Source: an uncultured Gammaproteobacteria bacterium
GTDB lineage: Bacteria > Patescibacteriota > Microgenomatia > UBA10105 > UBA927
Reading direction: 5' to 3'
Length of the DNA: 64,000 nt
Assembly: GCA_964445435.1 (NCBI GenBank)
Contig: CAYUKU010000002.1
Span: forward strand, 47,988-111,987
Part shown: positions 43,102 through 62,604 of the stretch, one piece after another
Numbering within the stretch: position 1 is the first letter of the stretch
Layout of the letters: the number at the start of each line of letters is the position of its first letter
Notes under the pieces: generated by a model
Databases searched by the model: none
What the model saw: the letters and a program-made list of their open reading frames with translations, nothing else
Told to the model about the DNA's origin: nothing
Program-made: the position numbers and the translations under genes

Positions 43102-43156
43102 ACGCGTATCATAGCACGGAGAAAGCGCGTTCTGAGGCGAAATAAGCCTATAGCAT

Positions 43157-43186
43157 TTGACTTTGGCGTGTATGTTAGCGTACAAT
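43157..43186 (+). promoter_or_regulatory. Sigma70-like promoter (TTGACT, 18 bp, TACAAT)
   Basis: TTGACT at 43157-43162 and TACAAT at 43181-43186 with an 18-nt spacer. A G-rich start follows about 7 nt downstream. Confidence 0.4.
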
Positions 43187-45862: not shown

Positions 45863-45906
45863 TTGACGTATCTAGTATAGCATGTCACACTGGAAGGGAA
45901 ATTCGT

Positions 45907-46323
45907 ATGTGGATTGCCATCATGGCCGCATGGTTTGTTACATTAGCCTCACAGGGCGGGAGGTGGTACCTGGAGCATAATTCCATTGCAGTGCATGATC
46001 AGTTGATTGGCGAATCAGTCGAGATAGACACGATCCGTGTTCCGGGGCCTGCGCTCCTGGTCATTTCAGGATCAGTGTACGGAAAGCCGCTTCTCTCCCA
46101 GCATTTGGGAACAGTGGAGTTTTTCAAAGGCGGGACCTACCGGGCGGTTCGGGTTCCTATTTCCACGAGCTCGATGGCAAAAGAACAAGCGAAACTTGAA
46201 GGCAGTATTTCACAGGGCAATCTTGTCTATGCTGTGCTATATAGGAAAAATGCACGAAATGAAGAAAAAGAGAAACGAGATATATTCGGAAAACTTATCG
46301 CAAAGCCGTTTCGCCTCAATTAA
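45907..46323 (+). CDS. Small membrane-anchored protein, paralog of 44599-45153
   Basis: TM helix MWIAIMAAWFVTLA and a C-terminal domain homologous to the other small family members. Confidence 0.5.
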   Translation: MWIAIMAAWFVTLASQGGRWYLEHNSIAVHDQLIGESVEIDTIRVPGPALLVISGSVYGKPLLSQHLGTVEFFKGGTYRAVRVPISTSSMAKEQAKLEGSISQGNLVYAVLYRKNARNEEKEKRDIFGKLIAKPFRLN

Positions 46324-47597: not shown

Positions 47598-48008
47598 ATG
47601 AAAATGTGGATACTTGCATCCATGCTGTTTTTGGCGAGTGCCATACTGTCTTCGTATATAACGATACGACGGTCTCAATTCGAGTTAGTGGTCAACGATC
47701 AACCCGTCGGCACAACGATTTTTATACAGAGACTTGTGCTTTCGCGCGCAGGGTATATCGTAATCACCCCTCAGACCGGCAGACCGGATCGCGACGTACC
47801 ATCAGTGTCTGACTACATGCCCGCAGGTGTCTACACGGATTTCAACGCAGATATTTACTGGGGCGATGAGCTTGATGTGCCTGCTTCTACACTGGTCACC
47901 GTCCGGATTCACTCGGATAACGGAGATGTATACTATGATCCTGCATTTGATCTGCCGGTTCGCGATAAATTCGGACGTATATATGAAAAAACGATTACAC
48001 TTCAGTAA
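47598..48008 (+). CDS. Small membrane-anchored protein, paralog of 44599-45153
   Basis: Signal anchor MKMWILASMLFLASAIL. The C-terminal domain ...DFNADIYWGDELDVPASTLVTVRIH...DPAFDLPVRDKFGRIYEKTITL aligns with the other family members. Confidence 0.55.
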   Translation: MKMWILASMLFLASAILSSYITIRRSQFELVVNDQPVGTTIFIQRLVLSRAGYIVITPQTGRPDRDVPSVSDYMPAGVYTDFNADIYWGDELDVPASTLVTVRIHSDNGDVYYDPAFDLPVRDKFGRIYEKTITLQ

Positions 48009-49137
48009 CGTACTGGCCCTTTTTTTGTGCGCTGTGGGAGCAGGATTTGTCTTCAGGTTGGTGTTGCATCACCAGGCAGCGTCAAGTACAGGAAGCGCCG
48101 TGCGGAGTTTGTTTGCCTTATGCGCGCGGGCAGAGGTACCGTTTGACTACGATTGCCTGCGTCGGGGAATGCTTCCGTTAGTCACGGAAGATACGCTCAT
48201 GGATGTGTTGGGAGTCCTTCAGGATGTGTTTGCCCAACCCAACGTTTCCCTCAAGACGCACGGCGCGCTGACGTGTCATCCATCCGGTCACGTTGCAGGG
48301 GAGATTGCGGTTGAGAAGGGGATTGAGTTCTCACGCGTGTCCACGCTGTGCGGTGCCATCTGCGACTACGGATGTGTGCATGGAGCGCTTGTAGCGACGC
48401 TACGGCATGACCATGAGTTTTTGGCGAAGGTCGGATCGTTGTGTGATGCGTTTCGGGCATCAGAAACCGTGCGGCAGATGTCAGCCTGTGGTCACGCCGT
48501 CGGCCATGGTCTTGCTGAGGTATTCGCTTCTGATTTTCCAAACGCCCTTGCGTACTGCGACAAATTTCAGAACGAATCTGTCCGCTCTGCATGCGGACAG
48601 GGGAGCATGATGGAGCACTTGATCGGGTTGCCGGACAGGCCAAAAAATATGAACCTCCTGTTGGATGACATACTGTCCTTTTGTGGCGGGCTTGCCGGCC
48701 GGTACAAAGAAGAATGCTTCGATAACGTCGGAACATATGCCGGACACGTGACTCAGGATGTTTTTGAAGCAAAAAACATATGCACACGAGTTCCGTCCTC
48801 CTCACGTATGAAATGCGTTCAGTCGTTGGGCGGTGTCGTTTATTACCAATTTCAGCATTCACCGCTGGCATTGAGCGCCTACTGCACATCGATGGGAGAT
48901 GCAGCAAGTCTTGCATGTATACTCGGGGCCATAGATACGAGCGTCGGCGAGTCCCGCAGCATGGAGTATGGGCGTATCCTCTGCGAGCAAATGAGGGGTA
49001 CAACGCAAAAGCGTTGTTTTGCGTATTACGGCACTCAAGTTGCTTCATCATGGGGAAGCGCAGTGCAAAAAGAAAAGTGCAGCCAGCTCAATAATGAGAA
49101 TGCCAGTGCGTGCAATTCCGGAAAGGATTCGTTATGA
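47983..49137 (+). CDS. Cys/His-rich repeat protein family, member 1 (secreted or anchored)
   Basis: Start MKKRLHFSNVLALFLCAVGAGFV overlaps the upstream ORF by 26 nt. It contains successive ~35-aa units, each with a Cys followed by aromatic/His-Gly: CHPSGHVAG, CGAICDYGCVHG, CGHAVGHG, CGQGSMMEH. Confidence 0.75.
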   Translation: MKKRLHFSNVLALFLCAVGAGFVFRLVLHHQAASSTGSAVRSLFALCARAEVPFDYDCLRRGMLPLVTEDTLMDVLGVLQDVFAQPNVSLKTHGALTCHPSGHVAGEIAVEKGIEFSRVSTLCGAICDYGCVHGALVATLRHDHEFLAKVGSLCDAFRASETVRQMSACGHAVGHGLAEVFASDFPNALAYCDKFQNESVRSACGQGSMMEHLIGLPDRPKNMNLLLDDILSFCGGLAGRYKEECFDNVGTYAGHVTQDVFEAKNICTRVPSSSRMKCVQSLGGVVYYQFQHSPLALSAYCTSMGDAASLACILGAIDTSVGESRSMEYGRILCEQMRGTTQKRCFAYYGTQVASSWGSAVQKEKCSQLNNENASACNSGKDSL

Positions 49138-50036
49138 GGAAGCGGCTGTTGCTTTTGGTTGCGCTTGTCGGAATCATGGGTTTTTCCGCATTAGAAATGG
49201 AACGGCGCAACGAGCATAAGCCGATCATTATGACGAATCGGGACGCAAAACGTGTCCGGGTGCAGATAGACAGAATTATGCGAAACAAAGGTCCAAAGGA
49301 TGCGTACACATATGCGAAAACTCTTTTTCCGTATGACAGATCCTTCGTGTCTCAACATCTGGTGCTCCACATATTTTCGGAACTTGCATATGCCAGATAC
49401 GGGAGACACGGCTTGAATTTTTGCGATAACGATTTCGCGTATGGCTGTCTTCATGGGTTTCTTGCGCAGATTATTGTGCACGAAGGGCTGGATAATGCAA
49501 AAGAGCTCTTCGCAGAATGTCGCAACCAGGCAAATGAGATTGCCTGTCAGCATGGAATCGGCCATGGAATCATGCAGTATCTGGGTGGGCGAAACATCCG
49601 CAGTGGACTTGATACCTGCGTGCGGATCGGTGCTGAAATTTCGGCAAAGGGGTGTTTCGGAGGGGCGTATATGGAGTATCATTTTCCGACGCTCACAACT
49701 GGGGGGGTGGAATCGGCTGTTCCGTTCGATCCGGATAATCCGTATGATATTTGCCCAGGACTCCCGGATTCCTATAAACCGTCCTGCTATTTCCGACTTG
49801 CCGAGTGGTGGGAAGAGATTCTCAGGAAAGATTACAAAAAGATGGGGAATTTATGTTCAAAGATCGGGAACACGGAGTATATGGCACAGTGTCTCCGTGC
49901 CATAGGTGCAACAGCTACGACAACGAGTGGGCATGACAAGAGTTTGGTCGCGTACATATGCAGCCAGGCGACACAATCACCAAACTATCGAGATATATGC
50001 CTTGAGGGATTCGATATGGAGGATCCGGGGAAGTGA
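49134..50036 (+). CDS. Cys/His-rich repeat protein family, member 2
   Basis: ATGA overlap with member 1. Signal anchor MRKRLLLLVALVGIMG. Motifs FCDNDFAYGCLHGF, CQHGIGHG, CFGGAYMEY. Confidence 0.75.
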   Translation: MRKRLLLLVALVGIMGFSALEMERRNEHKPIIMTNRDAKRVRVQIDRIMRNKGPKDAYTYAKTLFPYDRSFVSQHLVLHIFSELAYARYGRHGLNFCDNDFAYGCLHGFLAQIIVHEGLDNAKELFAECRNQANEIACQHGIGHGIMQYLGGRNIRSGLDTCVRIGAEISAKGCFGGAYMEYHFPTLTTGGVESAVPFDPDNPYDICPGLPDSYKPSCYFRLAEWWEEILRKDYKKMGNLCSKIGNTEYMAQCLRAIGATATTTSGHDKSLVAYICSQATQSPNYRDICLEGFDMEDPGK

Positions 50037-50037
50037 A

Positions 50038-51177
50038 TTACGACTTCCAGATGTTGTGGACAAGGACGCCCTCAACGAAATAGTTGTGTTCTGCTCCAGG
50101 GAGGCTCAGGTTGTAAACCGGCGGATTTTCGTCGACCGCGACTACAGATTCTACTGTCACTGCGTTTCCGTCCGGTCCCAGAAGCGTATCGCCCGCTCTA
50201 ACTGCGTCTGCACGAAGCCACAGGCCGCGGTTTGCGACCCAGAGGTTATGGCCTTTCGTGACTCTCAGTGTACCGTTAATAACCAAGTATCCTGCTTCCT
50301 GCGACTCAGGATCTGCAGATGGACTCGGGTGGGCAAGAAGTGCTGTCACTGTGTTGGGAACCAATTTGCCCGTAGAAAGATTGTAGGATAAAACGACGTC
50401 TCCCGGACGGATATCCTGAATTTCCTTCATCGTGCCGTCGGCCATGAGCACCCTAGAACCGGCGAGGAAGCATCCGCCGTAGCTGCCATATGATGCCTGG
50501 CCGTAGCCGTAATAGCCAGCCTGACCGTAACCGTAGCTGTATGAGTAGTAGGCGCTTTGCGCGTAGCCGTAATATGCAGCCTGACCGTAGGCGTAGCTAT
50601 ACGCATAATAATTGCTTTGGCTGTAGGTGTAATAATTGGCCTGACCGTAGGCGTAGTATGTGGACTGAGCGTAGGAGTAGCAGTTGTTGGTCAGTGTTCC
50701 ATCACTCGGATCACAATCAGCCGTCGTTGTTTTCATGAGTCCCATGCGTCGGTAGCCGGATGCAGTGGATGAGCGTCGTGGGTAGTTCGTATCGTCCGTC
50801 CAGTCGTTGACCCAGCCGTCTGCGTCGTTATCATAGATCCAAATGCCGCCGCCGGGGAGAAGCTGTCCGCTTCCGATGGCGATTCCGCCGGAACCGTTGA
50901 TGATAAATTGTCCAGCGACGATCTTCTGACCGGACGAAAGTGTCAGATTATAATTACCTAGCGTGATGGAGCCGGTGTTTGACGTACCCGTTTCAGAGTT
51001 TTGCGGATTATCGACACCATCCACGGTATAGGCAAACGTGCATGATGCGGTAAGCGTGATATTACCATATGTCGTTGTCGGGCGGGCACAGTCAGCCAAA
51101 ACACGCTCCTGTGGCATAAGCACGAAAAGGAAAAGAAGAGCGAGAAACGAGCCGATCGTTGAGAGACCTTTTTTCAT
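50038..51177 (-). CDS. Secreted protein with a Tyr/Gly/Gln-rich repeat tract and a C-terminal Hint (Hedgehog/intein-like, BIL-type) domain
   Basis: Start MKKGLSTIGSFLALLFLFVL (ATG at 51175-51177). Hint block A CFLAGSRVLMADGTMKEIQDIRPGDVV, block B TKGH (TxxH), and a C-terminal ...VEGVLVHN followed by only IWKS. A Tyr-rich low-complexity region lies upstream of the Hint domain. Confidence 0.8.
   Translation of the reverse strand: MKKGLSTIGSFLALLFLFVLMPQERVLADCARPTTTYGNITLTASCTFAYTVDGVDNPQNSETGTSNTGSITLGNYNLTLSSGQKIVAGQFIINGSGGIAIGSGQLLPGGGIWIYDNDADGWVNDWTDDTNYPRRSSTASGYRRMGLMKTTTADCDPSDGTLTNNCYSYAQSTYYAYGQANYYTYSQSNYYAYSYAYGQAAYYGYAQSAYYSYSYGYGQAGYYGYGQASYGSYGGCFLAGSRVLMADGTMKEIQDIRPGDVVLSYNLSTGKLVPNTVTALLAHPSPSADPESQEAGYLVINGTLRVTKGHNLWVANRGLWLRADAVRAGDTLLGPDGNAVTVESVVAVDENPPVYNLSLPGAEHNYFVEGVLVHNIWKS
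50470..50700. repeat. Tandem ~45-nt degenerate direct repeats that encode the Tyr-rich tract (YAYGQA-YY-Y-QS)n
   Basis: Recurring gcctgaccgta(g/a)(g/c)cgtag(c/t)t and gtagccgtaata blocks are visible on the plus strand. Confidence 0.5.
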
Positions 51178-51178
51178 A

Positions 51179-51709
51179 TTATCTGAACGCGAATCCCCCG
51201 TTATATGTGGCGTCCTGCCCGACGAGCGTAAAGTCAAGGTAATACGTCTCCTCATGGGTGTCATCCGCAGTCAGGGTTGCCTGCCAGGTTCCATTCGTAT
51301 CCGTTCCCGCCGTGCGGGTGAAGGTAAGCGGTGTTTTTTTCGTATCGGTATCGAGCCTTGCTGTTACGGAGGTTATGGGAGTAGTGTAGGTTGCCTTAAC
51401 CGTAATGGTTTGTTTGGCTCCGACTTTCACATCCAAAGGATCGAGTGCGAATTCATAGATTTTCGGTCCCACTGCCTTGGGTCCGGGGGCGAAGGTAAAC
51501 GTTTCCTTCCCAGGATTGAGCTTGCGGGGTTTCGGTTTCGGAGTAGGGGTGCCTGATGCCATGGCGATTTCTTTTTCCTCTTTCGGCGTCCCCATGAACC
51601 AATTAGTTCCCTTCTGGGAGACGATATACCATCCGAGCAAAACGACGACAACGATTCCGACAAGGAGAGCAGTATTAGAAGATTGCTTCGTGGACTTGGA
51701 CTTTTTCAC
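51179..51709 (-). CDS. Membrane-anchored hypothetical protein (beta-sandwich-like), co-transcribed upstream of the Hint protein
   Basis: GTG start, TM helix ALLVGIVVVVLLGWYIV, a Pro/Lys-rich linker and a Thr-rich beta-strand domain. Its stop lies 1 nt before the Hint gene start. Confidence 0.55.
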   Translation of the reverse strand: MKKSKSTKQSSNTALLVGIVVVVLLGWYIVSQKGTNWFMGTPKEEKEIAMASGTPTPKPKPRKLNPGKETFTFAPGPKAVGPKIYEFALDPLDVKVGAKQTITVKATYTTPITSVTARLDTDTKKTPLTFTRTAGTDTNGTWQATLTADDTHEETYYLDFTLVGQDATYNGGFAFR

Positions 51710-51841
51710 AATATAAAACCAAAAAGATAGCTTATCCTCATCCTAGAAAGACGGTACATGTTTGTCAATAGGCAATGTAATGTAGGTTACATTCATTTCT
51801 GCGTGGATATAGGAATAAAAAAAATGTAAGATGGTGAGGAC

Positions 51842-53032
51842 ATGAAGTGGAAACGAATGTATTCCGTAGCACTCGTTATTTCTCTCCTGCTTATCGGTAT
51901 TGCAAGGTACGCTCTTTTTCCTCGTGATTCCTATCCCGAAGTGCGGGAGCTTGCCGGAAAATCCCTCGATTTCGGAGAGCTAAGCGTTTTTTTCACCCGT
52001 CTTGCACAGGCGAAGGGCGCTTCATACGCATTTGAGGTTCTCCGTATTGCGACACTCCCGCCCAATACGGACATGCATCTTCTGGGGCACGTGGTGGGCG
52101 ATGAGCTCTATAAACAGCAGGGGATAAACGGCATGAGCGCCTGTACGCAGGATTTCCGCAACGCGTGCTCCCATTCCATCGTTGTCGGATATTTTCTTGC
52201 AAAGGGTGAAGAGGGGTTAGGAGATATTGCCAACGCCTGCAGACGCGCGCCGGGAGGCGCAGGCGCCTACACGATGTGTTTCCACGGTCTTGGTCACGGG
52301 ATACTGGCGGCGGTAGACTATGACCTGCCGCGGGCCGTGTCTCTTTGCCAAAAGACCGGGACGATTCAATACGGATACCGTGAGTCGTCCGAATGCACGA
52401 GCGGTACCGTCATGGAAATTATCTCCGGCGGGTTTCATAACAAGACGCTCTGGGAGAAACAGTCCGCGAAATATCTATCCCTAAGCGAGCCGCTTCTGCC
52501 GTGCACTGCCAGTTACGTGCCAGCAGGATCCAAGCCCCAATGTTTCGAGTATTTGACGCCGCATCTGGTGAAGGCGGCAGGCGGATCGCTGGATGACGGC
52601 GTGCCGGCAGATGAAATCCTTAAAAAGGCATTTGCATATTGCGAACTGCTCGATATCGATATCCAGCGCGCATTCTGCTACCAGGGATTCGGCAAGGAGT
52701 TCATCGTTCTGGTTCATAATCGCGATACGCGGACGCTCGCCAACATGGATGAACGGGAAATGAAAGAAACGTTTCGCCTGTGCGCGCTTGCGGGGCGTGC
52801 GCAGGGGGAGCGGGAGTGTCTGCTTCATGCGATGGATTCGCTTTTCTGGGGAGGAGAGAATGACCCGACAGGCGCAGTCCGGTTTTGCGCGCTTATGGAA
52901 TCAGAGACGCTTGCCAAGGCATGTTACGAGCATCTTGTGGGGGCGACCAGATTTTTCCTGAAAGATCCTCACGCCCGCGATCCCGTGTGTAAGATAATCC
53001 CAGGTGCGTACCAAAGAGACTGTTATGAATAG
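51842..53032 (+). CDS. Cys/His-rich repeat protein family, member 3
   Basis: Signal anchor MKWKRMYSVALVISLLLIG. Motifs HLLGHVVG, CTQDFRNACSHS, CFHGLGHG, CTSGTVME, CFEYL. Confidence 0.75.
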   Translation: MKWKRMYSVALVISLLLIGIARYALFPRDSYPEVRELAGKSLDFGELSVFFTRLAQAKGASYAFEVLRIATLPPNTDMHLLGHVVGDELYKQQGINGMSACTQDFRNACSHSIVVGYFLAKGEEGLGDIANACRRAPGGAGAYTMCFHGLGHGILAAVDYDLPRAVSLCQKTGTIQYGYRESSECTSGTVMEIISGGFHNKTLWEKQSAKYLSLSEPLLPCTASYVPAGSKPQCFEYLTPHLVKAAGGSLDDGVPADEILKKAFAYCELLDIDIQRAFCYQGFGKEFIVLVHNRDTRTLANMDEREMKETFRLCALAGRAQGERECLLHAMDSLFWGGENDPTGAVRFCALMESETLAKACYEHLVGATRFFLKDPHARDPVCKIIPGAYQRDCYE

Positions 53033-54503
53033 AAAAGCCTTCATAAGTATAGTCATGGCAGTGTTGGTTTCGGCGGCGTGGGTGTTTTTGTTCAAGGGTA
53101 TGGTGATGGGCGCAAGACGCGTCATCGAATTGAGGAAAAACGGATATTACCCCAAGAGTCTCACGATTCGGGTCGGGGAGACCGTGACGTTTGTCTCGCA
53201 GACCGGAAAACCGTTCTGGCCCGCCTCAAACGTGCACCCGAGCCATGGATTGTACCCCCAATTCGATCCGCTCAAACCCGTTTCTCCCGATACGCCCTGG
53301 CAGTTTACCTTCGACCGGCCGGGCAAGTGGCGGTTCCATGACCATATTGCGCCTGAGTTTACGGGGACGATTTTCGTTCTGCCCCAGGGGAAAACGACAA
53401 TTGATGCGCTTCCGTGTCAGGAGAAAAATATTGACCTTACCGTCAAGGAGCAGTGCTGGGAGGATGAGCTTGGCGATGCGCTGGAAACGAAAGGGATAAA
53501 AGCGGCCTTCACTGAATTCGTCCGTCTGTATCAGACAGATGCGGATTTCGTAACCACGGGATGTCACGTCCACGCGCACAGAATAGGCGACAAATTTTAT
53601 GAGACCTACGCGTCGGGGTTACAAACGCTTGCCGGTATCGAGCTTCCGCCTGAGACGATGTCGTGCGGGTACGGATTTTTCCATGGATTGTTTGAACACT
53701 TCTTCCGAAAACACCCCAATATCGCGCTTGCCCGGTCCGTTTGCGAAGATTTGGATAAACGCTACAGCAAAACGATCCCTCTTATCCGCATCAACTGTTT
53801 CCATGGAGCCGGTCATGGATTGATCGCCGATCCGCCCGACCCTGCATCATGGGGCAAGCCGCAGGATCTCGTGGGGAAGCCATTGTCGCTGTGTGAGAGC
53901 ATATCTCCTGTTGAGTCTGAAGCATACGCCTGTATGGACGGCGTATTTAACGTCGTTTCAAGCTGGATGGGAGATGCGAAGTACGGTATGTCCATCGACA
54001 TGAAAAATCCGTTTTGGCTTTGCAAGACGCTCAAGTCCACGCAGCAGGAGTCCTGCTATTATGAGCAGATTATGGTGATGAGCGAGTTTGATAACCGCAA
54101 CATGACGACGATTACGAACAAATACATCACACCCATCGTCAACAAGGATATAGCCAATCGGGTGATGTTTTCTCTGGCCGCCTCCCTCATGCAGAAGGAC
54201 GTTGTCCTGCCGGATCAGACGCACATGATCCGTGCATGCCGCAGTGTGCCAGGGTATCTACAAAAGAGTTGCCTGGAGGGAGTGGTCAACGGATTTAAGG
54301 GTCACGGTGAACCGGGGAAAGAATACGTGAAAATGCTTGCGTTTTGCCAGAATTCGCTTCTCACCCGCGTCGAGCGTGATACGTGTTACCTCTCGCTTAT
54401 TGATGCGATATGGGATTTGAATCCACAGCAGGAAGCGCTTGGGGTCTGCCAAAAGATACCGGATCAGTATAGAGCGCAGTGCGAGCAATGGGAGAAACGG
54501 TGA
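53004..54503 (+). CDS. Cys/His-rich repeat protein family, member 4, with an N-terminal cupredoxin-like domain
   Basis: TM helix followed by LTIRVGETVTFVSQTGKPFWPASNVHPSH...WQFTFDRPGKWRFHDHIAPEFTGTIFV, an amicyanin/plastocyanin-like strand pattern in which the ligand Cys is replaced by Asp. The family repeats follow: CHVHAHRIG, CGYGFFHG, CFHGAGHG. Confidence 0.75.
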   Translation: MRTKETVMNRKAFISIVMAVLVSAAWVFLFKGMVMGARRVIELRKNGYYPKSLTIRVGETVTFVSQTGKPFWPASNVHPSHGLYPQFDPLKPVSPDTPWQFTFDRPGKWRFHDHIAPEFTGTIFVLPQGKTTIDALPCQEKNIDLTVKEQCWEDELGDALETKGIKAAFTEFVRLYQTDADFVTTGCHVHAHRIGDKFYETYASGLQTLAGIELPPETMSCGYGFFHGLFEHFFRKHPNIALARSVCEDLDKRYSKTIPLIRINCFHGAGHGLIADPPDPASWGKPQDLVGKPLSLCESISPVESEAYACMDGVFNVVSSWMGDAKYGMSIDMKNPFWLCKTLKSTQQESCYYEQIMVMSEFDNRNMTTITNKYITPIVNKDIANRVMFSLAASLMQKDVVLPDQTHMIRACRSVPGYLQKSCLEGVVNGFKGHGEPGKEYVKMLAFCQNSLLTRVERDTCYLSLIDAIWDLNPQQEALGVCQKIPDQYRAQCEQWEKR

Positions 54504-55675
54504 TTATGGAAAAAAACGTGTTTCCGTTTAAGACAATCAGCATTTTCATTATCGGGGTTATCGTTCTTGTGGAAGTCGGACTGATCGTCTCTGAAAGGCT
54601 TGCGAAATCACCCTGCGCGGGGAAAGAAGGAACGGAGCTGAAAAACTGCTGGGAGACTGTTGTAACCGGTCACCTCAAAAAAGGAGACATATCCGGGGCA
54701 TTCGAGTCGCTTGCAACTCTTTATGAAACGACGCCGGCTTTGGGTGAAACATGCCATAGTCTGACCCATGAAATCGGACGGTCGGCGTATGAACTTTTCT
54801 CACGCGGGGTCGAATTTGATATTACCGCCAAAACTGCATACTGTTCTTACGGCTTCTACCATGGGTTCATGGAGGAGCTTGTCATACGACGTGCGGACAT
54901 GAAGCTTGCGCGGGAGTTTTGCGCGTACGTCGACAAGCAACTGGCAAACGTAAGTCCTGACGTGACGCTTCAGTGTTATCACGGTATCGGGCACGGGACG
55001 GTCAATAATCACGATCCGCGAACATGGGGGGAGCCGCAGCGTCTCATCGATCCCGCGTTGGCTCTGTGTGAACAGGTGGCAACCAATCAGGAGGAGCTCT
55101 CCCGGTGTGCGACCGGTGTGTACAACGGGTTGTCTATTTTTTATGCAACAGGGGAGTATGGACTTCTCCTCGATACGAAGGATCCGGTGGGTGTGTGCAG
55201 GCGGCAGAAGGTAGAGTATCAGGATGCCTGTTATGTGAGCATGAATACGCTTCTTTTACAGGTTGCCAATTATGATCTACGCAAAGCAGTCTCGTATATC
55301 GAGAACATACCGGATGACGCCATCGCCCAGCATACGATGATAAATCTCGCGTCCCCCATAGGGACGAGAAATCTGGGTACATTGGATCACAGCGAGACCA
55401 TCGGAGTCTGCAGGGCACTGCCAAGCCGCCTGAAACTGGCGTGCATCCAGGGGTATGCGTTCGGGTTTCTCGAACATGGGGAACCGGAGAAAGAATACAG
55501 AAAACCTCTCGCATTCTGCGGATCCCAACAGCTTGTCAAAGAAGAGCAAAAAGCATGTTTTGAGTATATTTTGTCGTATCTGCCAAGATGGTACGCCAAA
55601 GAGAAAGTTTCGGGGATTTGCCAAACGGTTTCATCAGAGTGGCGTGATTATTGTGAAAAACAAATACAAAATTAG
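54479..55675 (+). CDS. Cys/His-rich repeat protein family, member 5
   Basis: Motifs CHSLTHEIG, CSYGFYHGF, CYHGIGHG, CATGVYNG. Confidence 0.75.
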   Translation: MRAMGETVIMEKNVFPFKTISIFIIGVIVLVEVGLIVSERLAKSPCAGKEGTELKNCWETVVTGHLKKGDISGAFESLATLYETTPALGETCHSLTHEIGRSAYELFSRGVEFDITAKTAYCSYGFYHGFMEELVIRRADMKLAREFCAYVDKQLANVSPDVTLQCYHGIGHGTVNNHDPRTWGEPQRLIDPALALCEQVATNQEELSRCATGVYNGLSIFYATGEYGLLLDTKDPVGVCRRQKVEYQDACYVSMNTLLLQVANYDLRKAVSYIENIPDDAIAQHTMINLASPIGTRNLGTLDHSETIGVCRALPSRLKLACIQGYAFGFLEHGEPEKEYRKPLAFCGSQQLVKEEQKACFEYILSYLPRWYAKEKVSGICQTVSSEWRDYCEKQIQN

Positions 55676-57062
55676 CGGGATCGTCGGTATAATTCTGTTT
55701 CTTTTGGGAATCGGGGGATTAAGCATCCGACATGCGTATACCAAAACCATTACGCTTGATGATACCGGGTTCCATCCGAAAGTCGCTCTCGTTGTCAGGG
55801 GTGAAAGCATCACATTTCGAACTTCGCGGGGGAAATACTTCTGGCCAGCGAGCGACCCGCATCCGATTCATGCGACATATCCTGAATTTGACCCAAAAGA
55901 GGCCCTGAAAAAAGACGCCGTATGGACGTTTACATTCGACCGTGTCGGGATATGGAGCTATCATGACCACTTGGCTCCGCAGTTTGGCGGACGGATTATC
56001 AGTCTGGGATGGGACGCCAGGGAGTTCGCGCAACTGGTGCAGTCGGCCCGGAAAAAAATCTCCGGTTTCATCCCGCTGACTGTCACAGAGATGGAGGCGT
56101 ATTTCGGACAGTGCGGGGGACTCAATAAGGATTGCTGGGATCCCGTCTTTACTTCCATCGTAGAAACCAAAGGAACCAAACAAGCCCTGGAGACGGTTTC
56201 ATACTTGAGACAGAAATATCCGGAGTTTGCCAATTACTGCCATCAGTATACTGACTTCATCGGTGAGATATCGTATTGGAATATCCTCCCCAAAAAGCGA
56301 CTCCCGCAGTTTAACGCTGCTCTTGCAGGTCAATGCAGCAGCGGGTATATGCACGGATATATGGGTGAATTTGTTTCGCACGGGAGCATCGGACAGGGGA
56401 TTGCGTTTTGTGATGCGTTATTCAGACTCGCCCCTGACCACGAAGTGACTGCCGAGTGTTATCGCGGGGTCGGAAACGGCCTTGCCTTCCGGTTCGGACT
56501 CACGTCATGGAACGACGAGGATGCGATTATCAACGAGGCGCTTGGGGTGTGTGAATCGGTACGGGAGAAAAAACTTTGCGAACAGGGAGTCATCATCGGT
56601 CTTGATCATATGTACTTCGGCGTGCACGGGTTTCAATTGCGGATGGATCCCAAAGACCCGTTTGCAGTATGCCGTCGGGTAAAAACGGAACTTACTGATG
56701 ATTGTTACGAGCAGTTGTCCGACGGATTTTTCGCGTTTGTGGAATCTGATTTGGATAAAGCGATGCCGTATGTAAAAAAACTTCCACCCAAACAGGCAGC
56801 AATCGTCATCGCAAAGATCATACAAATTCCGTATGAACTTGAGTCGTTTGGCGCGAATGGATACGCGAGGATTGTCGCATGGTGTCGCAGCGTGCCGTAT
56901 GGTCTTGGCCAGACGTGTTTACGAGGGTTTATCGGAAAATTGAAAACAATCGATGTGGATTATAATGGGCATACGACAATAGCAGAGAATTTTTGCCGCA
57001 TGCCGATACTTACCGCGGAAGAAGAGTGGTTTTGCCGTAGGGTCGTCTATGAACAAATATAA
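55644..57062 (+). CDS. Cys/His-rich repeat protein family, member 6, with an N-terminal cupredoxin-like domain
   Basis: Probable GTG start at 55644 or 55653, overlapping the upstream stop. Cupredoxin-like segment ITFRTSRGKYFWPASDPHPIH...WTFTFDRVGIWSYHDHLAPQFGGRII. Family repeats follow: CHQYTDFIG, CSSGYMHGY, CYRGVGNG. Confidence 0.7.
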   Translation: MIIVKNKYKISGIVGIILFLLGIGGLSIRHAYTKTITLDDTGFHPKVALVVRGESITFRTSRGKYFWPASDPHPIHATYPEFDPKEALKKDAVWTFTFDRVGIWSYHDHLAPQFGGRIISLGWDAREFAQLVQSARKKISGFIPLTVTEMEAYFGQCGGLNKDCWDPVFTSIVETKGTKQALETVSYLRQKYPEFANYCHQYTDFIGEISYWNILPKKRLPQFNAALAGQCSSGYMHGYMGEFVSHGSIGQGIAFCDALFRLAPDHEVTAECYRGVGNGLAFRFGLTSWNDEDAIINEALGVCESVREKKLCEQGVIIGLDHMYFGVHGFQLRMDPKDPFAVCRRVKTELTDDCYEQLSDGFFAFVESDLDKAMPYVKKLPPKQAAIVIAKIIQIPYELESFGANGYARIVAWCRSVPYGLGQTCLRGFIGKLKTIDVDYNGHTTIAENFCRMPILTAEEEWFCRRVVYEQI

Positions 57063-58254
57063 TTCGTATCGCAGCATTTTCTGGTGGCTTGTTTTTGCCA
57101 TAGGCATTGCGCTTGCCGTTCTCTATCGGATGAATTGGTACGTGCCTACGCCCGGAAGATCTCCGACAGGGGAGGCTGAGAACGTACTGGAGCAGTGCAA
57201 AGGAGCGCAATATCGCCCTGCCTGTTACGAAGCAGAGATTCCGAAGCTCATGGCATATATGTCTATGGAGGATGCGTTCGCCGTAACAAAACTGGTGAGC
57301 GACAAGGATCCGCAGTTTGCCAACTGTCATGTGGTGGCACACAAATTGACCAGTCTTGAGACGCGGAAAGACCCGTCGCGCTGGAAAGATGTGCTTCTTC
57401 GGTGCCCTTCTTCCGTGTGTAATTACGGATGTCTCCATGGGTCAATGATTGAGCGGTTCCGAAGTGAAACGCTTACCGATGAGCAAGTGGAGAAAGTGTT
57501 GCCCGATATAATGGATTTGTGTGAGCCACGGGAGGGCTTCGTTCCATCAGCAATCGACAAAACCATGTGTTATCACGGCATCGGGCATCTTGCTATGTAT
57601 ATGACCGGCGGCGATCCGGCGCGCGCTATACCCGTGTGCGAGAAAACAGCGGTGCGCAGTGATGGGGCAAACTATCTTTCAACATGCATTGAAGGCGTAT
57701 TTATGACGGTATTTCAGAGCGTGGATTCTGAGGATTTTGCACTTGTGCGGTGGATACGGCCGGAGAAAGGGGACGTGCGGAGTTTCTGCTCCCGATACGG
57801 GCAATATTGGCAAATGTGCCGTCGCGAGTCGTTTCCGCTTTTTGACGATGAGTCGATGAAAAAGGCCAGCGGACTTGAGAAATTCTGTTCCTATGCCACG
57901 ACCCCGCAGGATATGAGAAGCTGTTATTGGGGCGGGATCAATGTCATCAGCACCCGGTTTTTCGAGTTGGGCGGCGGCATTTCTGATGTCGATTCGTACT
58001 GCAAAGGTTTTAGGGTTGAGACACAGGGATTATGCTATGGAGGTGTCGCAATGCGCCTTGTCCAGATAGATCCGATAAGAAATGTACAAATTGCAGACAC
58101 CATTTGTGCTCTGGCAAGAGATGCTGCCCGATTGGAGTGTTACAACAACTTGTTGTATTACGCGACGTTTAGCTTCAACACAGGAAGCCAGGAGTTTCGG
58201 ACGTATTGTGCACAGTTATCGGGTGACTGGAAAGAAGCATGCCTAAACCAATGA
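57049..58254 (+). CDS. Cys/His-rich repeat protein family, member 7
   Basis: Motifs CHVVAHKL, CNYGCLHG, CYHGIGHL, CIEGVFM. It overlaps the previous gene by 14 nt. Confidence 0.75.
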   Translation: MNKYNSYRSIFWWLVFAIGIALAVLYRMNWYVPTPGRSPTGEAENVLEQCKGAQYRPACYEAEIPKLMAYMSMEDAFAVTKLVSDKDPQFANCHVVAHKLTSLETRKDPSRWKDVLLRCPSSVCNYGCLHGSMIERFRSETLTDEQVEKVLPDIMDLCEPREGFVPSAIDKTMCYHGIGHLAMYMTGGDPARAIPVCEKTAVRSDGANYLSTCIEGVFMTVFQSVDSEDFALVRWIRPEKGDVRSFCSRYGQYWQMCRRESFPLFDDESMKKASGLEKFCSYATTPQDMRSCYWGGINVISTRFFELGGGISDVDSYCKGFRVETQGLCYGGVAMRLVQIDPIRNVQIADTICALARDAARLECYNNLLYYATFSFNTGSQEFRTYCAQLSGDWKEACLNQ

Positions 58255-59432
58255 AATCAACAAAAATATTCGTTACGCTCGGCTTGTTTGGCGTGGTTGC
58301 CGTCGGACTTGGGATATTTTTTTTCGTTTCGAAGGAAAAGGCGCCGAGCCCATCGCAGCTTTCGTCGTGGGGGAAAAAGTGCGAGGGTACATCTGATACC
58401 GGAAAGGTGGCGTGCTGGGAGGATCTGACACGGGAGGTCGTCAAAAAAGAGGGAATTGCCCCAGCGTTTGATCTTATTTCCTATTTATATGAGAAGAATC
58501 CTGAGTTTGCCGAACCATGTCATGCGATGGTTCATATCATCGGTCAGGTGGCCTACAGTCAGTTTCGCGCAACCGGGAATGTCGATTTATCCGAGAAAAA
58601 CGCGTTTTGTGCATTCGGGTTCTACCACGGGTTTATGGAAATGCTTGTCGCCAGAAAAGGAACAATTGCCGAGGCCCGGGAGTTTTGCCGGTACGTCGAT
58701 ACCAAACTGGGGGATATAACGCCGGGGGCGAAGTTGGGCTGTTACCATGGGATCGGGCACGGATCGACAGATATCCACAATCCGCAATATTTCGGCAATG
58801 AACGCGCAGTCATTGCGCCTGCGCTTGCCAACTGCGAGGCGTTTGCGACGGATGATGAGATGCGCAAGCTCTGCGTGACGGGGATATTTGACTCAGTCGC
58901 GCTTGCGTACTACAACAACGGGGAAAACGGATTCGTTATGAAAAAAGATGACCCGCTCTGGCTTTGCCGTGAACAGCCCGAGAGGTACAAGGAGTCGTGC
59001 TACTTGGATATGATGCCTGCGATGATCTGGCTGGGAGACCATGACCTGACCCGAGCGGGGCCGATGGTACTGGCGCATGCAGAGCGCAGCTATCGAAAGA
59101 TTGCGCTTCGGGCGCTTGCCGAAAACAGCGTGCGGTTTGTCATCCACAAAAGGCCGGTCGAAGACTATCTGCCTTATTGCAGATCGCTTGAGGCAGGGGA
59201 GAGTCTGGCCTGTGTCAGCGGTCTAGGGGTGGGGATTATGCAGTTTGGGCGGCCGGGTGAGGAATATAAAGATGCCATTGCGTTTTGTGTGTCGGATAGG
59301 CTTAATACTAATGAGCAGGACAGCTGTATGAAAGATGTACTTCAGTACGTCAGTCAGCGCTATGACCGAAAGAAATCCGCATCCATTTGTCGTACGGTTG
59401 ATGCACAATTTGAGGGATATTGCCGTGAATAG
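58239..59432 (+). CDS. Cys/His-rich repeat protein family, member 8
   Basis: Motifs CHAMVHIIG, CAFGFYHGF, CYHGIGHG, CVTGIFD. Confidence 0.75.
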   Translation: MPKPMKSTKIFVTLGLFGVVAVGLGIFFFVSKEKAPSPSQLSSWGKKCEGTSDTGKVACWEDLTREVVKKEGIAPAFDLISYLYEKNPEFAEPCHAMVHIIGQVAYSQFRATGNVDLSEKNAFCAFGFYHGFMEMLVARKGTIAEAREFCRYVDTKLGDITPGAKLGCYHGIGHGSTDIHNPQYFGNERAVIAPALANCEAFATDDEMRKLCVTGIFDSVALAYYNNGENGFVMKKDDPLWLCREQPERYKESCYLDMMPAMIWLGDHDLTRAGPMVLAHAERSYRKIALRALAENSVRFVIHKRPVEDYLPYCRSLEAGESLACVSGLGVGIMQFGRPGEEYKDAIAFCVSDRLNTNEQDSCMKDVLQYVSQRYDRKKSASICRTVDAQFEGYCRE

Positions 59433-60615
59433 GACGAAACTTTTGGTCGGAATTATTCTCGTTATCCTTTTGGAGATAGGAGTCCTTTTCGTGCGCAGTC
59501 TGGGCGGTTTTATGAGGCCGCAACAGGTCGCTTCCGCGGTATCGCGTGTTCTTGCCGCGTGCGACAAGGAGGAATATCACCCTGCCTGTTATGATCGGGA
59601 AATCCCAAAACTCATGGACCGTTTCTCCATGGAAGAAACGTTTGCCATTACCAAAGAGATCCAACTGAAAGATCCGACCTATACCTATTGTCATGTATTG
59701 GGTCACGCGCTTTCCTCGCAAGAGACGAAGAAGGATTCATCCAAATGGCAGGATGTGATAACCCGTTGCCCGAGCGGCGTATGTTCAAACGGGTGTGTCC
59801 ATGGGGCATTCCAGGAGCGGTTCAGAACCGACGTGTTATCCCAAGAGCAGATTGCCGAGATCAAGCCGCAGCTTCTCACCGTATGCAAGCCGCGCGGATT
59901 GTGGAATCCGACCGGCATGGAGCAGGCAACCTGTTACCACGCGATGGGACATCTTCTTATGTATATAACGGGTGCAGAGATAAACCAGTCGCTTGCGCTG
60001 TGCGATGAGCTTGCGAAACCCAAAGAGGAAAACGGGTATGATTTCCACCCTATCTGCTACGACGGCGTTTTCATGCAGATGTTTCAGCCGCTTGAGCCGG
60101 AAGATATTGCACTGGTACAGGGCAAACAACCGACGCGAGCGACGGTCCGTACCTTTTGCGACCGGTTTTCCGGGCAGGCAAAAGTATCCTGCGTGACGGA
60201 ATCCTGGCCGCTTTTCATTGCCGAACTTGAGAATCCAGAGTTTCTCACGTCCTTCTGCGGTCAACTTGCGCCGGATATGAGACACAGGTGTTTTACGGGC
60301 ATGTTTTATATCCTCGTCGTGCAGAATCGCTTCGATCTCACAAGAATGCGCAATTATTGTGATCAATTACCGGAAAATACAGCAGCATTATGCTATGCAA
60401 GCACTGCATCACGGCTTGTAGAGACAGATTGGAACAACATCACGAAGGCGGCTAACTGGTGCACCGAAACCGGGAGCGAGTCGGGAAAAAAGGCGTGTTT
60501 CGAGGAGCTTGTTTACTACGCTTCATATAACTTCCACAGAAAATCGTCTGAATTTTTTGCCTTATGTAACGCGCTTCCCGACCCATGGAAGCAGTCTTGT
60601 CTCGATGGTGAGTAA
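59401..60615 (+). CDS. Cys/His-rich repeat protein family, member 9
   Basis: Motifs CHVLGHAL, CSNGCVHG, CYHAMGHL. The start (ATG 59401 or GTG 59425) overlaps the previous stop. Confidence 0.7.
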   Translation: MHNLRDIAVNRTKLLVGIILVILLEIGVLFVRSLGGFMRPQQVASAVSRVLAACDKEEYHPACYDREIPKLMDRFSMEETFAITKEIQLKDPTYTYCHVLGHALSSQETKKDSSKWQDVITRCPSGVCSNGCVHGAFQERFRTDVLSQEQIAEIKPQLLTVCKPRGLWNPTGMEQATCYHAMGHLLMYITGAEINQSLALCDELAKPKEENGYDFHPICYDGVFMQMFQPLEPEDIALVQGKQPTRATVRTFCDRFSGQAKVSCVTESWPLFIAELENPEFLTSFCGQLAPDMRHRCFTGMFYILVVQNRFDLTRMRNYCDQLPENTAALCYASTASRLVETDWNNITKAANWCTETGSESGKKACFEELVYYASYNFHRKSSEFFALCNALPDPWKQSCLDGE

Positions 60616-61597
60616 GCCAATGCCTATGAAAACATCTTTACGAAAAATTCTTCTTTTAGGCGCGGCGGTGATCATTGTGGCCGCTATCATGACCCGTATG
60701 AGCAGTAAGCCAGAACCCCTGGAGACCGATCCGCACAAGGCAGTGACGCAACTGTCGGGAATCATGAAAAAGCAAGGGATTCTCGCAGCGCAGAAGTTTT
60801 TCCTGTCAAATTTCTTTTCCTATTCGGATAATAACCGGCATTATCTGGGGCATTTCATCGGGGAGCATATCTATAAGTCGTTCGGGCTTGCGGGTCTCAA
60901 AAACTGCTATTCCCATATAGAATTTGGGTGTATCCACGGTTTTCTCTTAAGCGGGTATCTCAAAGAGGGGAAACAGTTTCTCTGGGATGTCGTGGAGGAG
61001 TGTAAGAAGGATCTGCCCGAAGGGTGTATGCACGGACTGGGGCACGCGTTTCTTCTCACGCGCGGATACGATGTGCCAAGTTTGCGCTCCAGCCTGTCTG
61101 ATTGCAGCAGTCTGGATGTGCCGGAAGGCATGAAAGAGCAGTGCATCCAGGGGGTGTATATGGAATATAATGACCGGTTTCTCATCGACGGATCATCGTC
61201 TGTCAATTCCTTCGTCCCGCGCGATTTCAACCCCAAAAAACCTCTCGCCCCATGTGATACGGAACCGATCGACCTGCAACCGATCTGCTACCGCGAACTG
61301 GTACTGTATTGGGCAAACGTTTCCGGAATAACGAGAGGTCAGATGACCGACTACTGTCGCAGCATACCCAATCCGAAAGGGAAGTACGAATGTTTCTGGA
61401 GTTTCGGCGGGTATGTGGCGGGAGACGACAGCATCGTGGAGCCCTCAGTTGCCGTATGTCAGGAGCTTGCCGCAGACAATCTCAGTCCGTGTGTTCGCGG
61501 CGCGCTTATGTCGGCTGCGTTCCAGAGCCAGAAATCCAGGCAGGCATTTTGCAGTCAGATCCCGCAATCCCTACAAAAGGAGTGTGAGACATGGTAA
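60605..61597 (+). CDS. Cys/His-rich repeat protein family, member 10
   Basis: Motifs YLGHFIG, CYSHIEFGCIHG, CMHGLGHA. It overlaps the previous gene by 11 nt. Confidence 0.7.
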   Translation: MVSKPMPMKTSLRKILLLGAAVIIVAAIMTRMSSKPEPLETDPHKAVTQLSGIMKKQGILAAQKFFLSNFFSYSDNNRHYLGHFIGEHIYKSFGLAGLKNCYSHIEFGCIHGFLLSGYLKEGKQFLWDVVEECKKDLPEGCMHGLGHAFLLTRGYDVPSLRSSLSDCSSLDVPEGMKEQCIQGVYMEYNDRFLIDGSSSVNSFVPRDFNPKKPLAPCDTEPIDLQPICYRELVLYWANVSGITRGQMTDYCRSIPNPKGKYECFWSFGGYVAGDDSIVEPSVAVCQELAADNLSPCVRGALMSAAFQSQKSRQAFCSQIPQSLQKECETW

Positions 61598-62604
61598 AGC
61601 ATGCGCATTTGGGAGCGCTCGTCATCGTTGGCTTGGTCGCCGCAGTTTGGCTCGCGGCCCCGCAGGTTGACCGACTCAAGGCGTCACTTGTGAGTACGCC
61701 GTTTCAGCTGAGTCTTGCGCGAAAAGAAATAGACGCCTCCATAAAAATTCATGGAGCCCAAAAAACGTATGACCGGATAAAGGAGATCTTACAAGAGAAA
61801 GACAGCATACGGCAGCATACCGTGGCTCATATATTTGGGGAACTTCTGTACCGCGAAAATGGGCTGAGCGGGATCACCGTGTGTGATAGCAGTTTCGGCT
61901 TCGGCTGTTACCATAGCTTCTTCGGGAAAGCGGTAAGCGAGGGAGGGGAGGGGATCGTCCCTGAGCTTGACCGTCTGTGCGTCGCGTCATTTGGCGTTAT
62001 GGGATTGGGCTGCGCCCACGGCATCGGACACGGGCTTGGTGAATACTTCGGCCCGTCCCGGGTGGACGAACAGCTTCGCCTGTGTGAGGGGCTTTCATGG
62101 AAAGGGAAGTATATGGGGTGCCAAAGCGGTGTATTTATGGAATACAACACACCGGTTTCCACTGACGGTGAAACGGCAATGAGCAAGCCCAGACCCTGGG
62201 ATGAGCGCGCTCCCTATGGGAGTTGCTTGAGCGTTGCTGAAAAATTCCGCCCTTCGTGTTTCCTGGAAATTGCCGGTTGGTGGGAGCAGGTTATCCCACG
62301 CCAATACCCGAAGATGGGGGATTTGTGCGCGAGGCTCAGAAGCGTATCTGATCGGGAGAGTTGTTTTCTGGGGATTGGGTACAATGTCGTGCAGTCCCAT
62401 GAGTACGATACCGCGAGCGTAAAGGAAATTTGCGCAACGTTTCCTTCAGATGGCGAGCTTTTGTGCCGGGCCGGCGCATCATGGAGCTTCTTTGCGAATC
62501 CGGATTACCGCCAAGCCGCGTCCGAGTTTTGCCGCATGGATACCCAGGAGAAAACAGCGTTGTGTCAAAAGAAATCCGATTTACTCGGAAACGGATCGTT
62601 ATGA
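61591..62604 (+). CDS. Cys/His-rich repeat protein family, member 11
   Basis: ATGGTAA overlap with the upstream gene. Motifs HTVAHIFG, CDSSFGFGCYHSF, CAHGIGHG. Confidence 0.75.
   Translation: MVKHAHLGALVIVGLVAAVWLAAPQVDRLKASLVSTPFQLSLARKEIDASIKIHGAQKTYDRIKEILQEKDSIRQHTVAHIFGELLYRENGLSGITVCDSSFGFGCYHSFFGKAVSEGGEGIVPELDRLCVASFGVMGLGCAHGIGHGLGEYFGPSRVDEQLRLCEGLSWKGKYMGCQSGVFMEYNTPVSTDGETAMSKPRPWDERAPYGSCLSVAEKFRPSCFLEIAGWWEQVIPRQYPKMGDLCARLRSVSDRESCFLGIGYNVVQSHEYDTASVKEICATFPSDGELLCRAGASWSFFANPDYRQAASEFCRMDTQEKTALCQKKSDLLGNGSL

Follow-up and report, generated by a model that had tools for sequence, protein, structure and literature searches.

The window, a 64,000-nucleotide stretch of contig CAYUKU010000002.1 (assembly GCA_964445435.1, positions 47,988 to 111,987), carries on its minus strand a gene for a putatively secreted protein with a tyrosine-rich tail and a Hint domain at the very C-terminus. 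Within the family the domain keeps its catalytic residues; it is absent from orthologs in the same neighbourhood. It is read here, on balance, as a self-removing domain resembling A-type bacterial intein-like (BIL) domains. Features of the gene and its product are as follows.

50038..51177, minus strand: gene of the Hint-terminated secreted protein, 379 aa, stop codon included in the coordinates (open reading frame list, Pfam, about 20 full-length homologs).
51094..51177, minus strand: predicted cleavable Sec signal peptide, residues 1-28, MKKG...VLA-DC (conservation, helix in the AlphaFold2 (AF2) model, junction of the L089 fusion protein).
50683..51093, minus strand: N-domain, residues 29-165, short beta strands (conservation; shared by 125 representative proteins).
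50815-50832, minus strand: DxDxDG-type motif of the N-domain, D116-N-D-A-D-G121.
50473..50682, minus strand: Tyr-rich low-complexity tract, residues 166-235, seven YYxY(xYxY)xQxx units (composition, Tandem Repeats Finder (TRF), AF2).
50053..50472, minus strand: Hint domain, residues 236-375, mini-sized, without endonuclease insert (Pfam, AF2, BIL/PT-HINT structures, alignment).
50470-50472, minus strand: codon of Cys236, the first residue of block A, CFLAGSRVLMADG.
50248-50259, minus strand: block B, T307-K-G-H310 (TxxH).
50053-50058, minus strand: H374-N375 of the domain end V-H374-N375 (Asn375 at 50053-50055).
50041..50052, minus strand: vestigial C-extein I376-W-K-S379 (family tails aligned; Lys conserved).

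Two ATG starts, at 51264 and 51177, are possible for the minus-strand reading frame ending at 50038. The start at 51177, giving the 379-aa product, is chosen because the N-termini of all 20 full-length homologs agree with MKKG in alignment and the longer form would overlap the gene upstream, here called the partner gene. The 408-aa frame from 51264 is supported by no homolog and is rejected. The homologs (about 20 full-length, 300-401 aa, 34-95% identity) were found by a word-indexed search of 5.8 billion proteins and come from Patescibacteria metagenome bins. They have no functional names, and one carries the label 'Microgenomates group bacterium'.

The C-terminal domain is a genuine Hint domain, as a first, sequence-only reading of this DNA had held. 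In Pfam, PF07591 (PT-HINT) is matched at E 3.5e-13 with 50.4 bits (cutoff 27.7) and PF01079 (Hint) with 31.7 bits (cutoff 29.7); Intein_splicing, Hom_end_hint, Vint and Hint_2 match below threshold. Two of the three profiles which that reading had proposed for a search are thus found, the third, PF13403 (Hint_2), remaining below its cutoff. An NCBIfam search gives nothing useful. The AF2 model, built on a 21-sequence alignment, has a predicted local distance difference test score (pLDDT) of about 90 for residues 236-376. Foldseek gives 63 matches in the PDB at E <= 0.001, and the 50 of the 63 that were listed are all inteins, BIL or Hedgehog domains: at the top BIL2 of Tetrahymena BUBL1 (6Y75, E 2.6e-12), with a BIL of Clostridium thermocellum (2LWY, 30% identity, E 1.4e-11), and after the BILs mini-inteins and then Hedgehog HhC (6TYY, 1AT0) at E of about 1e-6. 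By sequence (phmmer) the best relative in the PDB is the segment 1083-1220 of the 1368-aa chain 8W20_A (E 5.3e-13), presumably Streptomyces UmbC1; 2LWY (E 5.7e-07) and then 6Y75 follow. HINT and C-terminal toxin domains are described in UmbC1 (10.1101/2023.12.09.570830). The proposed likeness to BILs therefore holds for solved structures, among which BIL domains are nearest, with the Hint of 8W20 best by sequence.

Cys236, Thr307, His310, His374 and Asn375 are invariant in 21 aligned sequences (34-95% identity), so the orthologs retain the catalytic Cys, His and Asn. The motifs quoted earlier are exact: block A at Cys236, TKGH, VHN and the tail IWKS followed by the stop codon. The residue after Asn375 (+1) is Ile in the window protein, and Ala, Val, Trp, Glu, Lys, His and Gly are among those of other members; Cys, Ser and Thr never occur there. 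On the aligned sequences canonical protein splicing is excluded: in none of the family does Cys, Ser or Thr follow the Asn, and a C-extein to ligate is missing; the earlier statement that splicing was unlikely is borne out.

In the literature A-type BILs are marked by a conserved C-terminal His-Asn; a +1 nucleophile is commonly missing, and the domains cut at one end or the other and now and then splice (PMC7765530, PMC5874633; citing Amitai 2003, Dassa 2004). They are found in variable regions of non-conserved bacterial proteins (PMC7765530, PMC5874633). The window domain fits this description, as far as sequence tells, together with the PT-HINT profile. It has the conserved His-Asn without +1 nucleophile, and its setting is a variable region of a non-conserved protein, the Hint being present or absent among orthologs and the N-domain joined to many C-termini. 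With A-type BILs (Amitai 2003; Dassa 2004; e.g. 2LWY) it shares the fold, N-terminal Cys, TxxH, His-Asn, mini size without endonuclease and a variable, secreted, non-housekeeping host. A-type BILs as described sit between two host segments, whereas only 1-8 residues follow the Hint of this family, which leaves nothing on the C-terminal side to splice or release. Placement in the A type over other Hint kinds is tentative, with BILs as the top structures and PT-HINT as the best Pfam model.

Other kinds were considered and rejected. A B-type BIL does not agree with the PF13403 score of 15 bits (cutoff 28.4) or with the presence of His-Asn. A true intein would need a +1 nucleophile and a C-extein to ligate, both absent, as is an endonuclease; the insertion site also fails, since Hint-less orthologs end at the junction and are not colinear across it. 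The host is a lineage-specific surface protein, unlike conserved intein hosts. An active polymorphic toxin agrees with the PT-HINT profile, but four residues and a stop follow the domain and no toxin domain is present. No immunity-like gene lies downstream of the Hint gene, where a convergent paralog follows at a distance of 1 nt. The pretoxin HINT of PF07591 (the Streptomyces protein of 8W20) is nevertheless the best match both in Pfam and by sequence in the PDB. The window protein has neither toxin domain nor immunity gene, and its N-terminal part is a small surface module in place of an RHS, filamentous or ALF scaffold.

The N-domain is carried by many proteins without a Hint. Searching 1.84 billion representatives exhaustively by phmmer, with the N-extein (residues 29-235) as query, yields 125 proteins that share it. 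Among the 119 of these examined with Pfam, only about 12 carry a Hint. The remainder have Gly_rich_2, Laminin_G_3, DUF1554, Cys-rich ends or nothing recognisable, and several combine the N-domain with aromatic repeats (YYxYxQ or FYPxFYP) and no Hint. The N-domain thus behaves, to judge from these architectures, as a common head on variable C-terminal modules. Most N-domain proteins (many of P0221-P0309) have a Cys-rich module at the end, whose last residues are recurrently ...G(T/V)Q(G/A)C(Q/R); DUF2341 is carried by others. Laminin_G_3 is found in four members of set A4 (Pfam).

Four complete Hint-less genes lie in long contigs: P0193 (L091), P0204 (L092), P0211 (L093, L094) and P0192 (L095). 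Their neighbourhood is the same as in the window: paralog array, partner, then this gene. A tblastn search of the Hint-less loci for Hint-coding DNA found none. In P0192 the N-domain is 67% identical and the protein ends ...YGYGQSQYGAS, followed by the stop; at the same point the window protein reads ...YGYGQASYGSYGG-CFLAG. Hint-less orthologs therefore stop almost exactly where self-cleavage would cut, at Gly235-Cys236. The Hint is a facultative, optional add-on. It does not belong to the core of the module, since orthologs in the same neighbourhood repeatedly go without it.

Hint-bearing and Hint-less members interleave in a tree of the N-domain, and in a tree of the Hint domain the family Hints cluster apart from 32 outgroup Hints; both are rough neighbour-joining trees. 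Because the N-domain tree interleaves while the family Hints cluster together, a single acquisition followed by several losses is suggested as the simplest history. Such tolerated loss is as expected if the domain removes itself anyway. In a side branch (P0199, P0209, P0258) Cys1 is kept, N-x-G-Y replaces TxxH, and LQH or HP(K/R) replaces His-Asn. P0209 also has an insertion of about 230 aa in the N-domain. From this branch it could be argued that the Hint is not catalytic and stays attached as a folded cap, or as a binding or adhesion module, for an aggregation-prone Tyr tract, the fold being of value without the full catalytic set. This is highly improbable for the window family, where all five catalytic positions are invariant and Hint-less orthologs function without a cap.

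The domain might instead be an evolutionary leftover, a former pretoxin-HINT or BIL that lost its toxin or C-terminal domain and persists as a near-neutral or selfish passenger of no use to the host protein. Its best Pfam model is PT-HINT, its best PDB sequence match is a Hint preceding a toxin in a 1368-aa Streptomyces protein, and it has been lost repeatedly. The wider clade, defined as the 77 related Hint loci that turned up when 185,579 species genomes were scanned, can be read in the same sense: C-exteins range from 0 to 1760 aa, Lys stands at +1 in 42/77 and within +1..+4 in 66/77 (Cys, Ser or Thr at +1 in 6/77), and the Lys kept in the window family would be the usual +1 residue of the clade. 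Passive survival is held to be improbable, given that the terminal-Hint architecture is stable in more than 30 proteins down to 34% identity with invariant catalytic residues, which argues for purifying selection on activity, that no immunity-like gene lies downstream, and that terminal Hints recur independently in proteins of Bacteroidota, Aenigmatarchaeota and Myxococcota. About 20 of the 77 loci have a tail of <=3 residues, among them unrelated proteins: a beta-helix surface protein from an Aenigmatarchaeota bin, large Bacteroidota proteins, and proteins of about 190 aa. By sequence, then, the terminal Hint is a recurrent architecture. Variable C-terminal extensions, named earlier as a thing to look for in homologs, occur in this wider clade (0-1760 aa) and not within the family (1-8 aa).

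The proteins of about 190 aa (L025, L028, L037; matches ending at 10417, 10399 and 3369) lack an obvious signal peptide. Their terminal Hint, which ends HNWK or HNQR, is directly preceded by a leader-like N-terminus and a short segment rich in Cys (e.g. CSCTAVPGGHCIGDTCPSGCSCS); these proteins look like peptide precursors released by the Hint. In the rough tree their Hints are the closest outgroup to the window family.

Tails of the window family after the Asn measure 1-8 residues, e.g. K, KI, EKI, WK[MIL], [IAV]WK[SN], GKQ and EKVGxxxK. Every one has a Lys within four residues of the Asn. The combination of an invariant His-Asn and a universal Lys in an otherwise variable tail suggests that chemistry at the C-terminal junction also matters. 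One possible form of it is a lysine-directed mini-splicing, in which the tail Lys, or the alpha-amine freed by Asn375, attacks the Gly235 thioester; the Hint would be excised and the Tyr tail capped by 1-8 residues through an isopeptide or peptide bond. Beside the constancy of His-Asn and Lys, this agrees with the dominance of Lys at +1 in the wider clade (42/77 loci). The top structural match, BIL2, makes an ATP-free isopeptide between a Lys epsilon-amine and a C-terminus (PMC8616854), and there is a report of BILs that splice although a +1 nucleophile is missing (Dassa 2004, cited by PMC5874633). Mini-splicing is nevertheless judged quite unlikely: adding 1-8 residues brings no obvious benefit, Hint-less orthologs end without a comparable Lys-containing tail, and the Lys may be structural, in the last strand or its flank.

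The N-terminal region is inferred to be a cleaved Sec signal peptide and not, as first proposed, a signal anchor. All homologs have n, h and c regions and an AxA motif ahead of the conserved Cys30, which lies within 1-3 residues of the AxA; AF2 models residues 2-20 as a helix. Two features have the look of a cleaved signal peptide: the conserved order of AxA and then Cys, and the junction of the L089 fusion protein. Lipoprotein anchoring was considered and is rejected by inference, as the residues before Cys30 (VLAD-C, AKAA-C and similar) fit no lipobox. The secreted Hint protein has no anchor of its own.

The N-domain holds, besides the DxDxDG-type motif, R143-R144 and the pairs Cys30/Cys46 and Cys155/Cys166. 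Invariant in the alignment are D116, D118, D120, R144, D154-C155 and C166; C30 and C46 are kept in at least 90% of the aligned sequences. AF2 gives short beta strands over the N-terminal region at a low-confidence pLDDT of 40-60, from which the beta-helical segment suggested at first is not confirmed as written. Sequence and profile searches of the PDB found no relative of the N-domain.

The Tyr-rich tract was correctly recognised; its length is 70 aa, not about 80. Tyr makes up 37% of it (3% in the rest of the protein), and Tyr, Ala, Gly, Ser and Gln together 93%. TRF finds DNA periods of 24 and 60 nt. The tract is predicted to be disordered (AF2 pLDDT about 22). Repeat Tyr and Gln positions are invariant and copy number differs among homologs; P0001 (95% identical) is short of exactly one 8-aa unit. 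A second repeat type, FYP[SAG]FYP, rich in Phe, Tyr and Pro, replaces YYxYxQ in L021, L022, L023, P0210, P0197, P0211, P0218, P0254 and P0262, and occurs in members both with and without a terminal Hint.

The partner gene lies directly upstream on the same strand.

51179..51709, minus strand: partner gene, 176 aa, with basic N-terminal tail, one transmembrane (TM) helix, linker TPTPKPKPRKLNP, ectodomain and C-terminal Arg (alignment).
About 51617-51673, minus strand: TM helix of the partner, residues 13-31.
51182-51499, minus strand: beta-rich ectodomain of the partner, about 105 aa.
51740..51768, minus strand: candidate sigma-70-like promoter TTGACA-17-TAGGAT, 31 nt upstream of the partner start (10/12 consensus matches).

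The stop codon of the partner gene ends 1 nt before the ATG of the Hint gene, and the two form a minus-strand pair between plus-strand paralogs. The promoter call is a consensus match only, with no evidence of function; no terminator-like site is found in 49800-52000. Co-transcription of the two genes is likely from the promoter-like site and the lack of a terminator-like site between them. A partner homolog is immediately upstream of the Hint gene in 12/12 Hint-bearing loci. It is also upstream of the Hint-less orthologs in L091, L092 and L093 (profile E 1e-62, 4e-37 and 6e-39) and in L095 (gene table together with protein P0190 from a contig of equal length), which makes 16/16 related loci examined (12 Hint-bearing, 4 Hint-less). 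The partner is an obligate companion of the N-domain gene. The tight link between the two genes asserted earlier is borne out by the 1-nt gap and the conserved pairing.

The partner linker is rich in Pro and Lys, with the pattern TPTPKPxPRPL across homologs. In the alignment the terminal Arg is invariant and Lys95 nearly so. Pfam gives sub-threshold Ig-like matches for the partner (Big_7 0.0055, Invasin_D3 0.0036), and on 14 partner homologs scattered sub-threshold Ig-like matches only; profile and sequence searches of the PDB found no relative. The former description of the partner as a beta-sandwich protein is therefore not upheld.

Two fusion proteins join partner and N-domain and both keep this order. 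L089 encodes one of 405 aa (7831-9048, minus strand) with TM helix, partner domain at 7-165 (E 7e-24), N-domain at 169-281 (E 3e-27) and a Cys-rich end. P0292, of 749 aa, has the partner domain at 425-550, the N-domain at 557-682 and a Tyr/Asp-rich tail (YSYDYTYSYDY...). At the join in L089, ...ITIAWSD-ACGIP..., the partner C-terminus meets the position of the mature N-domain N-terminus ('AC'), which speaks for the predicted cleavage site of the signal peptide as well as for a direct association of partner and N-domain. By these fusions the partner looks like a membrane anchor or dock, not a processing factor. Of the 'functionally linked surface-processing module' proposed at first, the gene linkage stands and the processing role does not.

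The course of events that is, on the whole, thought probable, though far from certain, is as follows. The partner would be a single-pass membrane protein that shows a small beta-rich ectodomain on a proline-rich stalk. The Hint protein would be exported by its cleavable signal peptide and its N-domain would dock on the membrane-anchored partner, the disordered, 'sticky' Tyr-rich tail possibly serving for self-association or adhesion. Cys236, aided by Thr307 and His310, could then turn the Gly235-Cys236 bond into a thioester by an N-S acyl shift. Resolution of the thioester, in the simplest case by water, would free the 22.3-kDa N-extein (29-235) from the 15-kDa Hint, and cyclisation of Asn375 could clip the four-residue tail. 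An A-type-BIL-like, self-removing Hint would in this way leave a 22-kDa Tyr-tailed protein docked on the partner, a mature product with the architecture that Hint-less orthologs encode directly; this identity would explain both the tolerated loss of the Hint and the end-points at the junction. The autocatalytic C-terminal cleavage or attachment favoured by the sequence-only reading is right in its BIL-like character and misplaced in its site: since a C-terminal cut would free no more than 1-8 residues, it is the N-terminal junction, Gly235-Cys236, that matters.

Resolution by an external nucleophile was also weighed. In such a trans-ligation, of the kind known from Hedgehog and BUBL, a Lys of the partner ectodomain, an amine of the cell wall or a molecule of a host surface would take over the thioester and the protein would be tethered covalently. 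The order of secreted cargo and terminal Hint resembles that of Hog proteins, a Gly-Cys junction is present in the window protein, conjugation to other proteins has a precedent in BIL2 (PMC8616854), Lys95 of the partner is near-invariant, and the secreted protein is without anchor. This outcome is very improbable all the same, because Hint-less orthologs keep the partner and the neighbourhood, which means that tethering must be independent of the Hint; the domain is followed by no region for adduct recognition, and position -1 is Gly, Ser, Ala or Tyr in different members. Considered more generally, a one-shot, ATP-free ligase, in which the Hint activates the C-terminus of the Tyr protein as a thioester and passes it to a lysine amine, is unlikely. 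Its acceptor could be the Lys of the protein's own tail, the membrane-anchored partner, or a cell-wall or host-surface molecule.

Known systems agree with parts of these schemes. In BIL2 of Tetrahymena thermophila BUBL1 (6Y75/6TMM), the best structural match, a Lys amine resolves the thioester to an isopeptide (PMC8616854), and the window family keeps a junction Lys. BIL2 is eukaryotic and flanked by ubiquitin-like domains; it is 23% identical, whereas the window N-extein has a Tyr-rich tail and no C-terminal domain follows. Hedgehog and Hog proteins, fold matches of lower rank, share the logic of signal peptide, secreted cargo and terminal Hint at a Gly-Cys thioester. They differ in that a sterol or adduct region after the Hint is absent from the window protein, and Hedgehog Hint domains are without the His-Asn and the tail Lys found here. 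Gly at -1 of the Hog junction is present in the window protein as G235-C236 and is not conserved in its family. Burglin (2008; PMC2362128) noted a group of secreted bacterial proteins (Myxococcus, Photorhabdus, Serratia, Yersinia) that have likewise a signal peptide, conserved cysteines upstream and a Hint-like domain at the very C-terminus; they are a precedent for the architecture. The group is described as divergent, motifs A and B alone being recognisable, whereas the window family shows the full set of A, B, F and G and falls in the PT-HINT/BIL-A clade; the two are set apart by description only. A literature search for Hint domains or Tyr-rich surface proteins in Patescibacteria found nothing specific.

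Several points weigh against a self-removing Hint that leaves a docked, Tyr-tailed protein. All evidence is computational, and the cleavage product is deduced, not seen. Cleavage at the N-terminal junction alone leaves the invariant His-Asn and the conserved tail Lys unexplained. The branch of P0199, P0209 and P0258, with its degenerate motifs, indicates that the fold can persist without full catalysis. Docking of the N-domain on the partner is suggested by gene fusions only, the AF2 model of the N-domain is of low confidence, and the trees are without support values.

Hint domains are known as inteins, as Hedgehog processors and as pretoxin or BIL modules between two protein segments. A terminal, cargo-less A-type-BIL/PT-HINT domain on a Tyr-tailed surface protein is a variant of these known kinds. 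The family offers a natural comparison that the known cases do not allow: one secreted protein, in one kind of gene neighbourhood, occurs both with a fully conserved terminal Hint and lacking it. Since Hint-less forms end at the predicted cut, the purpose of such a domain (maturation, capping or covalent attachment) is directly testable, with the conserved junction Lys as candidate acceptor. The analysis defines a two-protein surface module of anchor and Tyr-tailed protein; it adjoins a very large, unannotated Cys/His-rich paralog family in Patescibacteria, whose surface biology is largely unknown. Should cleavage be clean and fast, small Hints with tails of 1-8 residues would be usable as tags in protein engineering. 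Should lysine ligation be true, the domain would be a prokaryotic counterpart of Hedgehog cholesteroylation and of Tetrahymena BUBL conjugation, for covalent surface attachment.

On either side of the gene pair lies the paralog array.

47827..50036, plus strand: two Cys/His-rich, membrane-anchored alpha-solenoid paralogs, convergent on the Hint gene (context only).
51842..63998, plus strand: about ten further tandem paralogs, divergent from the partner gene (profile matches).

About 12 paralogs were found by profile search across 47.8-64 kb. Downstream of the Hint gene, 1 nt separates its stop codon from that of the convergent paralog. The paralog family numbers more than 1125 homologs, none of which has a name or a Pfam domain; their His/Cys pattern is invariant and their taxon labels read Sungbacteria, Parcubacteria or Patescibacteria. 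The window comes from an ultrasmall bacterium of the Patescibacteria (CPR). The AF2 model (pLDDT 91) is an all-alpha, membrane-anchored solenoid, for which the search against known structures gave no informative relative. That the pair is embedded antisense in the array, as first described, is confirmed by the layout of the window and by the same layout in 6/6 homolog loci first examined. Paralog arrays are also widespread without the Hint gene pair; the association is positional and recurrent, not obligate.

Two longer paralogs (499 and 535 aa; 53004-54503 and 55455-57062, plus strand) have an extra N-terminal domain. In homologs only, this domain gives a weak Cupredoxin_1 match; Pfam finds no cupredoxin match at E <= 0.001 in the window's own longer paralogs, whose extra domain contains His residues but lacks a Cys like that of type-1 copper sites. 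Oxidation or cross-linking of the Tyr tract by neighbouring paralogs with such a cupredoxin-like domain is conceivable.

At the start of the window a giant open reading frame (3-8051, plus strand, at least 2682 aa) runs off its edge; Pfam recognises in it a Fic/DOC segment at residues 706-761 (E 2.5e-07) and a YkoP-like segment only. Between 17289 and 41622 lie two DegT-type aminotransferases, two NAD-dependent epimerases (one fused to a HAD phosphatase), a GT2 glycosyltransferase, two PMT_2-type membrane glycosyltransferases and two large tetratricopeptide repeat (TPR) proteins, and just outside this glycan region, at 41602-43185, a spermine-synthase-like membrane protein. GC skew is positive in every 2-kb bin (0.04-0.17), and cumulative skew rises steadily with no switch within the 64 kb. 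Duplicated DUF7282 genes are at 44599-45153, 45856-46323 and 47598-48008, and leucine-rich repeat (LRR) genes at 45158-45862 and 46324-47052. The LRR, DUF7282, PMT_2, TPR and sugar-modifying neighbours indicate, by their predicted functions, a cell-envelope region. The pairing of LRR and DUF7282 genes recurs beside the Hint module in most related loci.

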